Below, in pieces: positions 11,208-17,986 of a stretch of 64,000 nt of DNA. The stretch lies in the NCBI RefSeq assembly GCF_041886205.1, contig NZ_CP169029.1, one strand, 5' to 3'. The stretch comes from Escherichia coli. GTDB lineage: Bacteria > Pseudomonadota > Gammaproteobacteria > Enterobacterales > Enterobacteriaceae. The position numbers were made by a program, and so were the translations under genes. Position 1 is the first letter of the stretch; every line of letters begins with the position of its first letter. Below the pieces are notes generated by a model. The model saw only the letters and a list, made by a program, of their open reading frames with translations. It was not told the DNA's origin and did no database searches.

Positions 11208-12164
11208 TTAAACCACCCGATCCAGCCCCAACATGCCGCGAGCCTGAATGAAACAGAGCAGCAACGTTCCCCATAAGGCCATCGTCAGGTAGGGGCTTAT
11301 ACCGAGAATATTGAAGCCGCTTTCAATAATTTGCAGAAGAAACAGCGCCAGCACCATACCAATTATCCGCCCGCTGCCGCCGTCCGGATTAACCCCGCCG
11401 AGTACTGCCGCGAGGATTGACACCAGCAAGTACGATTCGCCATAAGAGGCCTTAGCCGAGTTGAGTTTCGACATCATCAAAAATGCCGCTACCGCACAAA
11501 GCAAGGCGGAAATGACATAAACCCAAATCAGCACCCGACGAGTGTTAATGCCGGAGTAAAGTGTTGCTCGTTCGTTAGACCCAATCAGGTAAATGGCTTT
11601 ACCGAGCGGCGTTTTCTCCAGCAATATCCACAGCCCCAGTGCCACTGCGGCAAACAACCACATCGGTAGCGGAATACCGAACCATTGCGCATGATTCAAC
11701 CACAGCACCCATGAGGGATAATTGGCAATGGCGCTACCACCTGTCACCAGAATATTTATCCCTTTGAGCAACGTCATCATCCCAAGCGTTGCAAGAATTG
11801 GCGACACTCGAATACCAGCAATCAATACGCCGTTACATAAACCGATTATCACCGCCGCGCCAGCGCCCGCCAGTAACGTAGCGACAACCGTAGCAATACC
11901 CGGTGGATACTGAGTCGCCACCCACGCCATCACCAGTGAACAGGCGTTAGCAGTGGCTATAATTGACAAGTTAATGCCACCGCAAAGCATGGTCACCGCC
12001 ATAGCCAACGCCAGAATGCCCAGCACGGGCATTTGCGAAGCGACGGACTGGAAATTACTTATCGACCAGAAAATCTCCGGCATAGTAATGCTGAACGCGG
12101 CAACAGTTAGCACCAGCAGGCCGATCAAGTAAAACTCAACGTTATTACGCCACGATTTTTTCAT
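11208..12164 (-). CDS. sugar ABC transporter permease (second membrane subunit)
   Basis: Hydrophobic ORF; start placed at ATG 12164 forming an ATGA overlap with the upstream permease stop. Confidence 0.85.
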   Translation of the reverse strand: MKKSWRNNVEFYLIGLLVLTVAAFSITMPEIFWSISNFQSVASQMPVLGILALAMAVTMLCGGINLSIIATANACSLVMAWVATQYPPGIATVVATLLAGAGAAVIIGLCNGVLIAGIRVSPILATLGMMTLLKGINILVTGGSAIANYPSWVLWLNHAQWFGIPLPMWLFAAVALGLWILLEKTPLGKAIYLIGSNERATLYSGINTRRVLIWVYVISALLCAVAAFLMMSKLNSAKASYGESYLLVSILAAVLGGVNPDGGSGRIIGMVLALFLLQIIESGFNILGISPYLTMALWGTLLLCFIQARGMLGLDRVV

Positions 12165-13132
12165 AGCAGACTCCGGTTCTGATGCTGACTCCACGCCGTG
12201 GCACTAATGCTGGCAACGATGATGATGCCGGTGATCAATGTTTGCCAGTAAGACGAGACTCCCAATAAATTTAGCCCGTTTTGCATCACTGCCAACAACA
12301 CCACGCCGAGCAAAGTACCGGTTAACGTGCCGCGCCCGCCGAGCAAACTAGTGCCGCCAAGCACCACCGCAGCCAGTACTGTCAGCTCATAACCCAGAAG
12401 AGAATCGGGGGCGACAGTCATCACCGTCCACGACTGCACTACACCCGCAGCGCCAGACATCAATCCCATATAGCCATAGACGAAAAGTTGCAGTTTCAGC
12501 ACGCTAAAGCCGATGCGACTGGCTGATTCGCGGTTCCCGCCAAGGGCATAAATTTTGCGCCCTACACTGGTGAAATTCATGATAAACGCTGTTAGCAGCA
12601 CCACCGTAATCATGGCGATCAGCGGCAGACCAAGGCCATAGTCATAGCCATCAGCATCGGTATACTTGAACAACATAACCCCCTGCTCAAACCACGGCGG
12701 AAAGTCGTACAGCCACACACCTTTACTCAACCATAACAGCAGGCCATAGAAAATATTCAGCGTCGAGATAGTGATGATGATAGAAGGCACCCGTAGGCGA
12801 TTAACCAGTAAGGCGTTAATTAAGCCAAGTAAAATGCCGATGCAGCCCGCCAGTGCAAACGCGACAGCGAAGTTGCCACCAATTTTTTGCAGCAACAGCA
12901 CCATGCCGTATTGCGCAATGATGGTCATTGCTGGAAACGAAATATCAATTCCACCGGAAATCAACACCACAAACAAACCACAGGCGAGAATAGTCAACAT
13001 GGCATAGTTATTGGCGAGATCGTACAAATTACCGAATGTCAGAAACTCGTCGCTGCGCCAGGCAAGGCCAACAAACATCACCACAATCAGTAATGCCAGC
13101 CAGAATTCATGGCGTTTTTTCAGTTCAGCCAT
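12161..13132 (-). CDS. sugar ABC transporter permease (first membrane subunit)
   Basis: 323-aa hydrophobic ORF, RbsC/LsrC-like; overlaps ATPase gene 3' end. Confidence 0.85.
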   Translation of the reverse strand: MAELKKRHEFWLALLIVVMFVGLAWRSDEFLTFGNLYDLANNYAMLTILACGLFVVLISGGIDISFPAMTIIAQYGMVLLLQKIGGNFAVAFALAGCIGILLGLINALLVNRLRVPSIIITISTLNIFYGLLLWLSKGVWLYDFPPWFEQGVMLFKYTDADGYDYGLGLPLIAMITVVLLTAFIMNFTSVGRKIYALGGNRESASRIGFSVLKLQLFVYGYMGLMSGAAGVVQSWTVMTVAPDSLLGYELTVLAAVVLGGTSLLGGRGTLTGTLLGVVLLAVMQNGLNLLGVSSYWQTLITGIIIVASISATAWSQHQNRSLL

Positions 13133-14624
13133 TTACCACCTCCGCAATCCTGGCCTGAGAACTGCTGTCAGGCAGGAAGCTATGGGTGATCTGACCTTTT
13201 TGCATTACCAAAATCCGGTGGCTTTGATACCACGCTTCTTCAATTTCATCGCAGATCATCAATACCGCAATGCCATGAGCCGCCAGATCGCTGATAATGC
13301 CGTATATTCCTGCTTTGTTGGCGATATCAACACCGACTGTCGGGCTATCGAGAATCAACAGTCGTGGCCCAATCGCCAGCCATTTGGCGATCGATACTCG
13401 CTGCGCGTTACCACCAGAAAGCGTATTCACCGGAAGATGAGGATCAGAGACTTTGATGGTCAATGCCTTGATTAGCCTGTCCACCAGGTCACGCACTTTA
13501 GTTTCACTCAGAAAGCCGAAGCGATCTTTTACCTTGTGAAAAACAGTGCTAATGATGTTGTCTTCAATAGATTGCGCCATCACCAAACCGCGCGACATGC
13601 GATCTTCCGAAACATAACCAATACCGTGGCGGATGGCGTCCTGGTTACTATGCAGTGTAACCGGCTGGCCGTTGATGAGGATCTCGCCAGCATCCGGTCG
13701 GGTCATACCAAACAGACTCAGACATAATTCCGTGCGCCCCGCACCAAGCAGGCCAACAATCGATACCACTTCGCCCGCTTCCACCCGCAAGTTAATATTT
13801 AGATATTCCCCATGACGACTTAAATTACGCACCTCCAGCACCGGGGTGCTGGATTTTCCCTGCCACAACTCTCGCACCTGATATTCAAACTCCTGGCCGG
13901 TCATCAGGAAACCGAGTTGTTTTGTGGTCATCTCTGCAGCCGGAAAAGTCCCGACCAGCTCACCATCTTTCAGCACTGAAATACGGTCGGAAACTTCCAT
14001 CACTTCTTCCAGACGATGACTGACGAAGACCACGCAGATCCCGCGTTCACGCAATTGATGCACCACCTGTAATAACCCTTGCACTTCCTGATGGGTCAGC
14101 GAAGCGGTTGGTTCATCCATCACGATCAACCGTGCGTCCTGCGCCAGTGCACGGCAAATTGCCACCAGCTGACAGCGGGCAATTGAAAGCTCAGAAACGA
14201 GCGTATCCAGTGGCAATGTGACGTTAATACTAGTCATTGCCGCCTGCGCCACCTCACGCAGACGACGGCGGTTAACAAACAGACCGTGGTGATAGTGATT
14301 CACGGCGATATTCTCCCAGACACTCAGGTTAGGAAATAAAGAGAGGTCCTGATAAATCACCTGAATCCCCTGCGCCACCGAAGCGGCTGGTGTCAGCTTT
14401 GACCAGTTTTTCCCACCAAGCGTAATTTCCGCTCCCTCATCCGGGCGATAAACACCGGACATAATTTTAATCAACGTCGATTTACCACAGCCGTTTTGTC
14501 CGGCAAGGCAGTGCACTTCACCCGACATAAAGTCGAGAGAAACATCGCGCAGCGCTCGCGTGGCATGAAACGTTTTGTTGATATGACGAAGGGAAAGGAA
14601 GGTTTCCATAACATCCCCTGGCAA
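13125..14624 (-). CDS. sugar ABC transporter ATP-binding protein (duplicated ABC domains)
   Basis: 499-aa ORF with two Walker A motifs (GQNGCGKST, GLLGAGRTE) and two LSGG-type signatures, as in CUT2-family ATPases. Confidence 0.9.
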   Translation of the reverse strand: MPGDVMETFLSLRHINKTFHATRALRDVSLDFMSGEVHCLAGQNGCGKSTLIKIMSGVYRPDEGAEITLGGKNWSKLTPAASVAQGIQVIYQDLSLFPNLSVWENIAVNHYHHGLFVNRRRLREVAQAAMTSINVTLPLDTLVSELSIARCQLVAICRALAQDARLIVMDEPTASLTHQEVQGLLQVVHQLRERGICVVFVSHRLEEVMEVSDRISVLKDGELVGTFPAAEMTTKQLGFLMTGQEFEYQVRELWQGKSSTPVLEVRNLSRHGEYLNINLRVEAGEVVSIVGLLGAGRTELCLSLFGMTRPDAGEILINGQPVTLHSNQDAIRHGIGYVSEDRMSRGLVMAQSIEDNIISTVFHKVKDRFGFLSETKVRDLVDRLIKALTIKVSDPHLPVNTLSGGNAQRVSIAKWLAIGPRLLILDSPTVGVDIANKAGIYGIISDLAAHGIAVLMICDEIEEAWYQSHRILVMQKGQITHSFLPDSSSQARIAEVVNG

Positions 14625-14657
14625 TAAGAATCGGGGCTTTCGCCCCGAAGAAATGGA

Positions 14658-15644
14658 TTAATAAAGTGAGTCGATATTGTCTTTGTTGACCAGTAATACC
14701 TTATGGAAACGGATAATTCGCTTATCCATATCTACGTCGGCCTTACCCAGATTCTGCATTTCTAATCCAGGTTTGATCTCTTCACCCTTCAGCAACGTGC
14801 TGGCGACGGCTGCGAGTGCGTAACCTGCAGAGGCCGGATCGTAAGTAATCCCTTCGGTGATATCACCACTTTTAATCAGTGATGCCGCCTGTGAAGGGAT
14901 CATCATGCCATAGACTGCGACTTTATTTTTCGCCCGTTTCTCTTTCACCGCACGTCCCGCGCCAATCGGACCGTTTGAACCAAAGGAGACAACCGCTTTC
15001 AAGTCAGGATAGGTTTTCATCAGGTCCAGTGTGGTACGACGTGAGTCATCCACACTCTCGGCAACCGGCATGCGGCGGGTAACTTCATGCATATCCGGGT
15101 AATGCTCTTTCTGGTATTTCACCAGCAAGTCAGCCCATAAGTTATGCTGCGGCACGGTCAAACTACCCACGTAAATCACATAGCCGCCCTTGCCCCCCAT
15201 GCGTTTCGCCATATGCTCAACATATTCAGCGGCAAATTTTTCGTTATCAATGATTTCGATATCCCAGTTAGCACTTGGCTGACCGGGGGATTCGTTGGTC
15301 AGAACCACAATTCCGGCATCTCGCGCTTTTTTGAATACCGGTTCCAGCACGTTGGCATCGTTTGGCACGATAGTAATTGCATTAACCTTACGGGCGATTA
15401 AATCCTCAATAATTTTAACTTGTTGCGGAGCATCAGTACTTGAAGGCCCCACCTGTGAGGCATTAACACCAAAGGCTTTACCCGCCTCAACCACACCTTC
15501 GCCCATGCGATTAAACCACGGCATACCATCGACTTTAGAAATATTCACCACGATTTTTTCCGCTGCCTGGAGCGGCGCAGAAATTAGCGCAGCGCCTAAT
15601 AACAGCGAAGACACCATATTGATAACAAAACGTTTATTCATCAT
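14658..15644 (-). CDS. periplasmic sugar-binding protein, LsrB-like
   Basis: 328-aa ORF with signal peptide; C-terminal ...HKVLLVNKDNIDSLY and internal TYPDLKAVV resemble what I recall of LsrB (from memory). Confidence 0.8.
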   Translation of the reverse strand: MMNKRFVINMVSSLLLGAALISAPLQAAEKIVVNISKVDGMPWFNRMGEGVVEAGKAFGVNASQVGPSSTDAPQQVKIIEDLIARKVNAITIVPNDANVLEPVFKKARDAGIVVLTNESPGQPSANWDIEIIDNEKFAAEYVEHMAKRMGGKGGYVIYVGSLTVPQHNLWADLLVKYQKEHYPDMHEVTRRMPVAESVDDSRRTTLDLMKTYPDLKAVVSFGSNGPIGAGRAVKEKRAKNKVAVYGMMIPSQAASLIKSGDITEGITYDPASAGYALAAVASTLLKGEEIKPGLEMQNLGKADVDMDKRIIRFHKVLLVNKDNIDSLY

Positions 15645-15876
15645 TTCAGCCTCATTGCAGGGTAGTCAGGAAGTGTTCGCCCAAATTAGCGCGCTGGAGA
15701 GAATAAGAATTTTCGAATATTTTTATGCAGAATAAACAGCTCTATTTCAGGCAGCTATTAAAAATATGGTTATAAATATGGACAAAACGGGCAGCAATAA
15801 TAAGTGTGACATTCATCACGTAAAAAACAGCAAAATAAACAAAATTAGCGATATTTTATGTTTGTGAGCTTATTTC

Positions 15877-15900
15877 GTGTAGATAAATAGTTATCTACAC
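15877..15900. promoter_or_regulatory. perfect 10-4-10 palindrome GTGTAGATAA-ATAG-TTATCTACAC (candidate operator or hairpin)
   Basis: Perfect inverted repeat overlapping the ASCH-gene stop codon and lying in the region upstream of the ABC transporter operon. Confidence 0.35.
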
Positions 15901-16305
15901 AACGTCAATAAGGGCATATTCTTCAAAGATAACGTCCATTTCTGGTGAATAGCTTCCTTCTGCCTGGAAAAAACGACGGTGTTCATTACGCCAATATTCA
16001 AGACTGAGGTCACCTTCACCTTCCTTACGGGCAAGCTCCGCGGTGACATCAGAAAAGCGCAGTAAATGCAGGCCAATCACTCTGATAACACATACAGGCT
16101 CACCACAGCTATTTTCTACAATCTTATACTCACCAATCATCGGAAATGCGTTGTCTTCAATACATCCCGCCAGCGAACCACAGGAAGCTGTTTTAACACC
16201 AGTCGCAATCAACGTTGCGAGGTGATCGGCCAACGCGGCTGAATCGCCAAAAGTACAAAAGGAAGCATGGGGATATTTTTGTGAGAATTTTTCTTTTATG
16301 GTCAT
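15895..16305 (-). CDS. ASCH-domain-like (PUA-fold) protein
   Basis: Track ORF 15895..16335 begins at TTG; start placed at ATG 16305 (MTIKEKFSQKYPHASFCTFGD...); ASCH call by eye. Confidence 0.6.
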   Translation of the reverse strand: MTIKEKFSQKYPHASFCTFGDSAALADHLATLIATGVKTASCGSLAGCIEDNAFPMIGEYKIVENSCGEPVCVIRVIGLHLLRFSDVTAELARKEGEGDLSLEYWRNEHRRFFQAEGSYSPEMDVIFEEYALIDVV

Positions 16306-16603
16306 GGAAATATTTTTGCGATTACGGAAAAACAAATCACATCTTAATTACTGTTGGTAACCATCAGCAAGAGTATCATTGGTTTTTCGATACTGAATCT
16401 TTTTTATCCGAAGCAGGTCACATTTATGGCCTGATAAATACCTTTGTTAAAACTCACTTTTGTGTATTTCTCTCAAATAATCCCCTGGAAATTATGCCGG
16501 GAGATTATAAAGTTCAGGATCATTCATTAGCAAACCATTCCCGCCCCACTCCCTGGGGCTTAAATCTCTTACCGTTCACCGTTGCAGACATATCAAATGC
16601 GCA

Positions 16604-17986
16604 TCAACCTGCCACACTCCCCCACACCAGTTGCCCTTTATGGAACGTTGCGGTTCTCGGCGAGATACGCGCCACCGCCTCGGCGGAACAGGAGGCGTCC
16701 ACCAGCACAAAGCTGGCGTCATCCTGCGCTTTTGGCCATACACGCTCGCCTTTTTCATTCAGCGGCAATACATCGCCAGTGGCTAAAAACAGCGAACGGG
16801 AGAGGTTCTGTTCGTTAGGACGAATATAGAGCTGCGCGTAGAGATTGGCTTTTTCCAGCATGCCGCCCAGACCATAAGGCGACCAGTGGTCGATAACGCT
16901 GTCAGTGCCAGTCATCACTTTTACGCCTTTGTCGTGCAGCTGTTTGAGCGGCATATGCAGCGTGCCAATCGGCACCGTCGAGGCGATAGAAATTTGCTGC
17001 GCCGCCATCCGGTGCGCCAGCGCATCGACCTGTTGTTCGTTGAGCGTTGCCAGCGCAAAGGCGTGGCTGATGGTCAGCTTACCTTTCAGTTGTGGCGTTT
17101 TCTCCACTGTTTCAACCATATAATTGATGGCCGCCACGCCCGCCGGAGTGGTTTCGTGCAGGTGAATATCGACGCCTTTGTCGTAGTCCAGCGCAATCTG
17201 AAACATGGTGTCGAGGGATTTTTCCATCGCGCCATCGACACTGGTCGGGTCCAGACCGCCGACGTAATGCGCGCCCGCCTGCATTGCTTCACGCATTAAG
17301 GGTTCCGATTTCGACAGCAGCAAACCGTGCTGCGGGAAGGCGACGATTTCACACTCGAAGCCCGCCTGACGCCGCGCCAGCACCGCCTGCAAATTTTGCA
17401 GATTTTTCAGGCCGGAAACCGGTTCGATATTGCAGTGGCTGCGGGCAATGGTGGTGCCTTTCGACTGCAATAGTTCGATCAGTTTTTCCGCCCGCTCCTG
17501 CGTGTACGGTTGTAACTCCGGCAGCATTTTCTGCTCGAGTTTGATCATGTCCTGGATGGTGGTGCCTGCCGGGCGATTGAGCGAGCGCCACGGCCCGCCG
17601 TAGAAGGTTTTGTCGAGATGAATATGCATGTCGCGAGTGGTGGGCAGCATCAGCTTACCGCCAGCATCATAGTGCGGTAGCGTGGCGTCCGGATGCTGCT
17701 TGTTCTCGCGCAGAGCAACAATTTTGCCGCTCTGAATCTCTACGGTCTGGTGCGCCGTGCGGGTCTGTACCGCCACACCGTTTTCGTAATCAAATCCGGT
17801 TTCCAGCAGCACGTTGTCGAGATAGTAGTGCGGGTCAGTGATTTTCATGGTGTTATTTGCCTCGCAGTGGGTTGTGCCAGAGACTGCCGCATGGGCGAGC
17901 GGCACAGAGGTACCAAACAGCGCGGCGGCAGTGACCATCTTACCGCTCTGGCTCAGAAACTCACGGCGGCTATTGTTTTCTTTCAT
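16604..17986 (-). CDS. yahJ: amidohydrolase-family deaminase with twin-arginine (Tat) signal
   Basis: 460-aa ORF; N-terminal SRREFLS...AHA Tat-type signal; metal-dependent hydrolase-like. Confidence 0.88.
   Translation of the reverse strand: MKENNSRREFLSQSGKMVTAAALFGTSVPLAHAAVSGTTHCEANNTMKITDPHYYLDNVLLETGFDYENGVAVQTRTAHQTVEIQSGKIVALRENKQHPDATLPHYDAGGKLMLPTTRDMHIHLDKTFYGGPWRSLNRPAGTTIQDMIKLEQKMLPELQPYTQERAEKLIELLQSKGTTIARSHCNIEPVSGLKNLQNLQAVLARRQAGFECEIVAFPQHGLLLSKSEPLMREAMQAGAHYVGGLDPTSVDGAMEKSLDTMFQIALDYDKGVDIHLHETTPAGVAAINYMVETVEKTPQLKGKLTISHAFALATLNEQQVDALAHRMAAQQISIASTVPIGTLHMPLKQLHDKGVKVMTGTDSVIDHWSPYGLGGMLEKANLYAQLYIRPNEQNLSRSLFLATGDVLPLNEKGERVWPKAQDDASFVLVDASCSAEAVARISPRTATFHKGQLVWGSVAG

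Follow-up and report, generated by a model that had tools for sequence, protein, structure and literature searches.

A palindrome at positions 15877-15900 of the Escherichia coli DNA analyzed here (a stretch of 64,000 nucleotides, hereafter the window), lying at the end of a gene for an ASCH-domain protein, may well represent a stem-loop that forms at the 3′ end of the ASCH mRNA and lacks a U-tract, a reading that we hold with moderate confidence. As RNA, the hairpin is more stable than expected by chance for AT-rich sequence, its pairing is conserved on one strand, namely that of the ASCH message, and it is retained in genomes devoid of the neighboring transporter operon. This reading is better supported than that of a DNA operator for the transporter, which is unlikely. 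The significance beyond annotation is small, in that one likely 3′-end stem-loop is added at the variable locus between yahJ and yahK.

A hairpin at the end of the ASCH gene

The sequence-only reading had described a perfect 10-bp inverted repeat with a 4-nt spacer that overlaps the ASCH stop codon, sits in an AT-rich region upstream of a binding-protein gene and is no canonical intrinsic terminator, and each of these observations held up. The plus strand reads GTGTAGATAA-ATAG-TTATCTACAC, with the stop codon TAG and the last sense codon GTG (GUG in the mRNA, 15900-15898) both falling within one arm. The two flanking genes, ASCH and binding-protein, are on the minus strand, the latter starting at 15644, and the order in the direction of transcription is ASCH, a hairpin beginning at the last ASCH codon, an AT-rich spacer of 233 nt and the binding-protein gene. 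In ASCH-sense RNA, the core stem-loop is 5′-GUGUAGAUAA-CUAU-UUAUCUACAC-3′ (Table 1). Its 5′ arm starts at GUG and contains UAG, and its 3′ arm is made up of the first 10 nt past the loop, as part of the 3′ UTR. Since the stop codon lies within the stem, pairing of the arms has to await the departure of the terminating ribosome. Two further pairs, of UU (15902-15901) with GA (15876-15875), extend the stem to 12 bp and are lost in the cryptic-clade alleles. An outer 6-bp helix predicted for the allele of the window is absent or broken in K-12, SCPM-O-B-8794, E2593 and three further alleles (loci L008, L019 and L023); as it is unconserved, we left it out of the element.

Within the window, this is the sole perfect inverted repeat of at least 10 bp with a loop of at most 10 nt. 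Simulated sequences (first-order Markov) contained a mean of 0.85 such repeats per 64 kb, with at least one in 53% of the simulated windows, and as a DNA palindrome the element is thus not above chance. As an RNA hairpin in AT-rich sequence, it exceeds chance: at −13.2 kcal/mol it is the most stable among 2632 minus-strand 36-nt windows with a GC content of at most 36%, just 0.15% of these AT-rich windows reach −12.8 kcal/mol, and the z-score against shuffles of its own 36 nt (overall GC content 31%) is −5.6.

On neither strand is the stem followed by a run of T, the sense strand continuing with GAAAUAAGCUCAC and the antisense strand with AACGUCAAUAAGG, and a scan of positions 15500-16500 returned no terminator-like site. 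Given the missing U-tract and a stem with three G-C pairs, the hairpin is not a canonical intrinsic terminator. Nor does any other terminator-like site occur between ASCH and the next gene. Scanning positions 15000-17000 against Rfam with E-values up to 10 gave chance-level matches only, the best one overlapping the palindrome being CopA-like (18.3 bits as compared to a gathering score of 60; E = 4.8).

Table 1 Features of the palindrome region, in coordinates of the window.
Feature	Position	Strand	Basis and remarks
Core stem-loop	15877..15900	-	10 bp, 4-nt loop, 3 G-C pairs; sequence, inverted-repeat search, fold
Extended 12-bp stem	15875..15902	-	Adds U-A and U.G pairs; folds
Outer 6-bp helix, CUUAUU (15912-15907) with AAUAAG (15874-15869)	15869..15912	-	Fold, this allele only
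ASCH stop codon UAG	15895..15897	-	Within 5′ arm; ORF list and RefSeq annotation of the identical locus
ASCH-domain gene (YhfF-like, PF04266), 136 aa	15895..16305	-	Stem-loop at its 3′ end
Predicted aau (Z0415-9) control region	15756..15820	-	Consensus scan; apart from the hairpin
CRP-like site CGTGATGAATGTCACA	15820-15805	-	Consensus scan
AraC I1-like site TGCCCGTTTTGTCCATA	15793-15777	-	Consensus scan
AraC I2-like site TAACCATATTTTTAATA	15772-15756	-	Consensus scan

Pairing is retained on the sense strand across alleles

The perfect dyad, searched for as the exact 34-mer, occurs in 46 of ~5030 E. coli records, and the common alleles deviate from it at one to three positions, in one arm only. 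On the ASCH-sense strand, the 5′ arm reads GUGUAGAUAA in all alleles but one, and the alleles can be told apart by their 3′ arms: UUAUCUACAC in the allele of this window (46 records); UUAUCUACGC, with one asymmetric position, in the commonest allele that accompanies the island (1197 records); UUAUCUACAU in the O157:H7 allele; UUGUCUACGU in the K-12-type remnant allele (about 2800 genomes); UUAUCUGCGC, together with a UUAAU loop, in the cryptic-clade allele (E2593 and E1V33); UUAUCUGCAC in the single strain SCPM-O-B-8794; and UUUUCUACGC in an allele with a mismatch (475 records, the type strain ATCC 11775 among them). In the remaining, compensated allele, found in 4 records from unrelated sources, the arms are GUGUAGAAAA and UUUUCUACGC.

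We counted pairs in nine allele rows, representing eight allele types, from 19 loci of E. coli and the cryptic Escherichia clades. On the sense RNA, 89 of 90 cells were paired, versus 77 of 90 on the antisense RNA. Positions 3′, 7′, 9′ and 10′ of the 3′ arm vary by A/G or C/U transitions, all four of which interchange Watson-Crick and G.U pairs in the sense RNA and create mismatches in the antisense RNA or in the DNA dyad. The sole transversion, from A to U at position 3′, yields a U.U mismatch, which in a small clade is repaired by a U-to-A change in the 5′ arm, such that pair 8 passes from U-A through U.U (475 records) to A-U (4 records). In total, four of the six arm substitutions are compatible with G.U pairing on one strand, one is disruptive, and one compensates exactly. 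The earlier proposal of an RNA hairpin fits this variation, with sense pairing kept through G.U pairs and one compensatory double change. All alleles fold into one common sense-strand hairpin of −7.4 to −14.2 kcal/mol, with weaker antisense folds for each allele (−3.0 to −11.8 kcal/mol); the K-12 form reaches only −7.4 kcal/mol (z-score −1.95). Loops of CUAU, UUAU and UUAAU are tolerated.

A covariation scan found one pair changed on both sides and five extra pair types, values that were reached in 102-104 of 500 column shuffles and are hence not significant. Of the ten transitions that the 3′ arm could undergo, six would be G.U-compatible in any case, which puts the chance probability of four compatible ones at ~0.13. 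Selection for RNA pairing is therefore suggested by the allele series but not proven: the substitution events are few and essentially confined to one species, and the mismatch allele persists in a large lineage. The U-A, U.U, A-U series nevertheless provides a small, clean example of what would be compensatory evolution in a 3′ UTR hairpin within one species.

Hairpin and CRP-like site are separated by 56 nt (15821-15876), compared here with loci L002, L004, L005 and L006. This segment differs by roughly 30% between the K-12-type and island-type haplotypes, and the stem pairs are kept. As compared to this hypervariable segment, the remnants of the ASCH 3′ end and of the permease gene in K-12-type genomes are ~93-95% and 99-100% identical to the window, respectively.

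The element is confined to E. coli and the cryptic clades

The locus lies on the E. coli chromosome between yahK and yahJ and is identical in strain 6EVA, where it is annotated as yahK, two ABC permeases, an ATPase, an 'autoinducer 2' substrate-binding protein, the ASCH domain protein and yahJ. The full locus is present in 2208 of 5426 complete E. coli genomes. A further ~2800 E. coli genomes, including that of K-12 MG1655, have retained 66-72 bp of it (window 15873/15879-15944), consisting of the palindrome and the last ~15 ASCH codons and situated between yahJ and a 75-bp piece of the last permease gene. Two deletions mark the K-12-type genomes, one of aau and one of the 5′ part of ASCH, the latter with ~22 nt of filler. 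In K-12 MG1655, the hairpin remnant resides in the unannotated yahJ-yahK spacer (positions 2434-2650 of the extracted locus, L002), with window equivalents of about 11279, 15873-15944 and 16543.

Two more gene arrangements were observed. In Escherichia sp. E2593, an intact ASCH gene is followed directly by the permease remnant and yahK, and the transporter is absent; in SCPM-O-B-8794, ASCH is truncated and the transporter present. The hairpin is found in all four arrangements. We considered that deletions might repeatedly have spared the hairpin, and rejected this idea, as the deletion endpoints of K-12 and of the cryptic-clade Escherichia sp. E1V33 are identical. Common endpoints imply a single deletion event rather than several, and a deleted haplotype that is either old or the product of exchange among clades.

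Neither ASCH nor the palindrome accompanies the homologous transporter cassettes of a metagenome contig, of Atlantibacter and of Providencia, all in unrelated contexts, which argues that the hairpin travels with the ASCH 3′ end and not with the transporter. Contigs searched with ASCH peptides contained two Escherichia remnants only. An ASCH homologue in Yersinia canariae occurs in another context and has a different, GC-rich 3′ hairpin; since this 3′ end differs, it is uninformative on the present element, which is limited to E. coli and the cryptic clades. Two copies of IS1 were seen at related loci. In strain ECCNB12-2, one is inserted exactly after GTTGTG within the 5′ arm of the hairpin, with everything downstream replaced (L017, about 300-330), and in the metagenome contig another lies ~280 bp upstream of the aau homologue (L011, 3384-3720).

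The sequence-only reading had named many copies scattered over the genome, as of a repeat-element fragment, as an outcome that would speak against it. Such copies did not turn up: the window holds no extra exact half-site, searching it with the core dyad and the half-site returned scattered matches with one to three mismatches, mostly in coding sequence, and no second copy, and the 34-mer matched a median of one place per genome across 5027 genomes, any extra places being weak partial matches. Compared by eye with the motifs of CRP, FNR, Fur, DnaA, EvgA, LacI-family regulators, LysR (T-N11-A) and H-NS nucleation, the palindrome seems to fit none in both spacing and sequence. For the DnaA box, TTATCCACA agrees with TTATCTACA at 8 of 9 positions and misses the conserved C, the K-12 form being TTGTCTACG. 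Literature matches of the arm sequences to Cas12a crRNA scaffolds (GUGUAGAU) and to primers were rejected as coincidence, and so was the Shewanella HipB operator GTGTA-N6-TACAC, which has the outer 5 nt in common with the palindrome but a gap of 6 nt as compared to 14 nt.

The Aau transporter and its control region

The four-gene ABC transporter at 11208-15644 of the window (minus strand) corresponds to Z0415-Z0419 of EHEC, named Aau for accessory L-arabinose uptake by Cottam et al. 2024 (PMC11127945); the RefSeq product name 'autoinducer 2' binding protein is misleading here. That study demonstrated promoter activity for a ~300-bp upstream fragment; L-arabinose induces this activity, and mutation of araC abolishes it (PMC11127945). 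The primers given there for the P_Z0415 reporter map to 15950-15643 of the window, placing the palindrome inside a fragment that its authors left undissected (PMC11127945).

We scanned positions 15641-15960 on both strands for the AraC half-site consensus, with a cut-off of at least 7 of 10 matching positions. This consensus (araI) spans 17 bp, TAGC-N7-TCCATA, and is arranged in direct repeats 21 bp apart. The I1-like and I2-like sites were the only ones to reach the cut-off, and they too form direct repeats 21 bp apart; the palindrome stays below 7 of 10. Together with the CRP-like site, these sites occupy the stretch 57-121 bp downstream of the palindrome, so that the control region of the transporter, through these predicted sites and the published AraC dependence, appears to be accounted for without the palindrome. 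As far as its text shows, the Aau paper leaves AraC- and CRP-like sites unmapped (PMC11127945). The same layout recurs in the metagenome contig, upstream of an 86%-identical binding-protein gene, and in SCPM-O-B-8794; in both, it agrees better with the consensus, the half-sites are conserved and the spacers vary.

Just past the binding-protein gene and ahead of the ATPase gene, the operon has a GC-rich hairpin, UCGGGGCGAAAGCCCCGA, with a T-rich tail (14631-14648, minus strand); it looks like an intercistronic attenuator or stabilizer that would favor expression of the binding protein. In the RNA-seq table of the Aau paper, fold changes are uneven along the operon, at 26.5-fold for Z0415, 43-fold for Z0417 and 7-fold for Z0418 (PMC11127945). 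The adjoining locus tag Z0414 is listed as 3.7-fold up with L-arabinose in the supplementary RNA-seq table (PMC11127945). Z0414 is possibly the ASCH gene, in which case arabinose or catabolite status would have some influence on ASCH expression. About 200 nt upstream of the ASCH start, we noted a promoter-like sequence, TTGCTA-18-TATAAT (10 of 12; 16504-16533, minus strand), which suggests that ASCH has a promoter of its own, separate from the yahJ operon.

Candidate function and alternative explanations

A stem-loop at this position would most likely act after transcription. Transcription of ASCH would continue past the gene into the spacer, 233 nt of AT-rich and untranslated sequence, in which either factor-dependent termination, perhaps involving Rho, or cleavage of the RNA could take place. 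Exonucleases working from 3′ to 5′ would then trim the RNA back to the stem-loop, which would thereby set the mature 3′ end and protect it. In K-12-type genomes, the same may apply to transcripts running out of yahJ. Where the island is complete, the ASCH transcript could in this manner be insulated from the AraC/CRP-controlled aau operon, which would start ~60-120 bp further on. The hairpin is also kept where there is no transporter, i.e. in E2593, with ASCH present and aau absent, and in the ~2800 K-12-type remnants. Downstream of the stem, a bias of C over G is absent (C/G of 0.9-1.1 in the first 100 nt of a region with 73% A+T), and there is thus no rut-like signature. Neither yahJ nor yahK has an entry in the supplementary tables of RNA 3′ ends of Adams 2021.

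The palindrome could also lack any selected function, being an AT-rich repeat that arose by chance at a gene end and is now drifting, with its perfect symmetry owed to a recent G-to-A change. We regard this as credible, though less likely than the stem-loop at the mRNA 3′ end. It would agree with the ~0.85 such repeats expected per 64 kb, with a perfect form that is a rare derived allele (46 records) alongside a common mismatch allele (475 records), with covariation statistics that fall short of significance, and with an element restricted to E. coli and the cryptic clades, the Yersinia ASCH homologues ending differently. Yet drift fits less well with arm substitutions of which four of six are compatible with G.U pairing on one and the same strand and another exactly compensates the one that is disruptive, with a stem that stays intact beside a spacer diverged by ~30%, and with a fold energy that is extreme for AT-rich windows. 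That the stem-loop is more than a passive cap, namely an autonomous RNA element under selection, either a hairpin recognized by the ASCH protein in autoregulation or the working 3′ end of the yahDEFGIJ operon transcript, strikes us as quite improbable. The ASCH-domain fold is generally proposed to bind RNA, and bearing on the same question is the remnant in ~2800 K-12-type genomes, which has kept its pairing between two deletions.

The structure and its strand-specific conservation would serve a non-canonical pause or termination hairpin equally well, i.e. one that acts co-transcriptionally to cut read-through from ASCH (or yahJ) into aau. This hairpin is the sole stable structure between ASCH and the promoter that depends on AraC, and the P_Z0415 fragment (15950-15643), which contains it, is inactive without AraC; however, that fragment includes no upstream promoter, and its silence in the araC mutant therefore says nothing on termination. 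Hairpins without U-tracts terminate poorly in E. coli, and with no U-tract, only three G-C pairs and a failed terminator scan, we deem co-transcriptional termination improbable. As for the DNA itself, the sequence-only reading had raised the possibility of an operator for a dimeric regulator; bound at the dyad, such a protein would control the aau operon or ASCH. Most island strains show symmetry in the inner 7-8 bp of each arm, and the setting is AT-rich, 57 bp upstream of the CRP-like site and within the published promoter fragment. The dyad is, however, imperfect in ~99% of genomes, with changes that are one-sided; the element is kept where the transporter has been deleted (K-12 type, E2593) and is absent upstream of the aau homologues of the metagenome contig, Atlantibacter and Providencia; the island contains no regulator gene; and at the sensitivity used, neither the window nor the 5426 genomes hold a second copy. 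Moreover, AraC already explains the regulation (PMC11127945), the palindrome matches the AraC half-site at fewer than 7 of 10 positions, and any plausible transcription start lies more than 100 bp downstream of its center. Loss of the dyad, co-occurrence, copy number and the known AraC control hence all disfavor an operator, which we hold to be very improbable; a palindrome beside the Aau promoter need not count as one, as AraC-like and CRP-like sites can be placed downstream. A fragment of repetitive or mobile DNA (REP/BIME, MITE or IS end), or a scar at an insertion boundary, would suit a locus that is a hotspot of gain and loss, with four gene arrangements and, in one strain, IS1 inside the left arm. 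We nonetheless consider such an origin exceedingly improbable, in view of one copy per genome (median of one place), no match to an Rfam family, and deletion endpoints (about 11279, 15944 and 16543) that do not coincide with the palindrome.

Comparison with known systems

With a canonical intrinsic terminator, the stem-loop at the ASCH 3′ end shares a hairpin at or near the upstream stop codon, a loop of 4 nt and a stem of 10-12 bp; it differs in having a U-tract on neither strand, an AU-rich stem and no success in the consensus scan. The REP hairpins of malE-malF are intercistronic stabilizers that bring about differential expression within operons. Like these, the present stem-loop lies between two genes on the same strand and could protect the upstream message from 3′ exonucleases, but it is single-copy, AU-rich and not a REP element, and the downstream operon appears to have an AraC/CRP-dependent promoter of its own, for which the activity is published (PMC11127945) and the sites are predicted. 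With regard to AraC/CRP-controlled regions such as those of araBAD, araFGH and araE, the palindrome shares the intergenic region and the published P_Z0415 fragment, but does not match an AraC half-site.

For Rho-dependent transcripts of E. coli, steady-state 3′ ends were found directly behind stable stem-loops that have no U-rich tails and by which these ends are marked and protected, with a mild enrichment of C over G downstream (Dar and Sorek 2018, PMC6061677). Likened to this class, the ASCH element differs in its AU-rich stem (3 G-C pairs) and a C/G ratio of about 1.0, and agrees in combining a stable hairpin at the 3′ end of a gene with the lack of a uridine tail or upstream A-tract and with untranslated sequence thereafter. 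The element is of an ordinary known kind, beside a transporter that is already characterized, and by analogy its closest described counterpart would be the U-tract-less stem-loop of Rho-dependent transcripts (PMC6061677).
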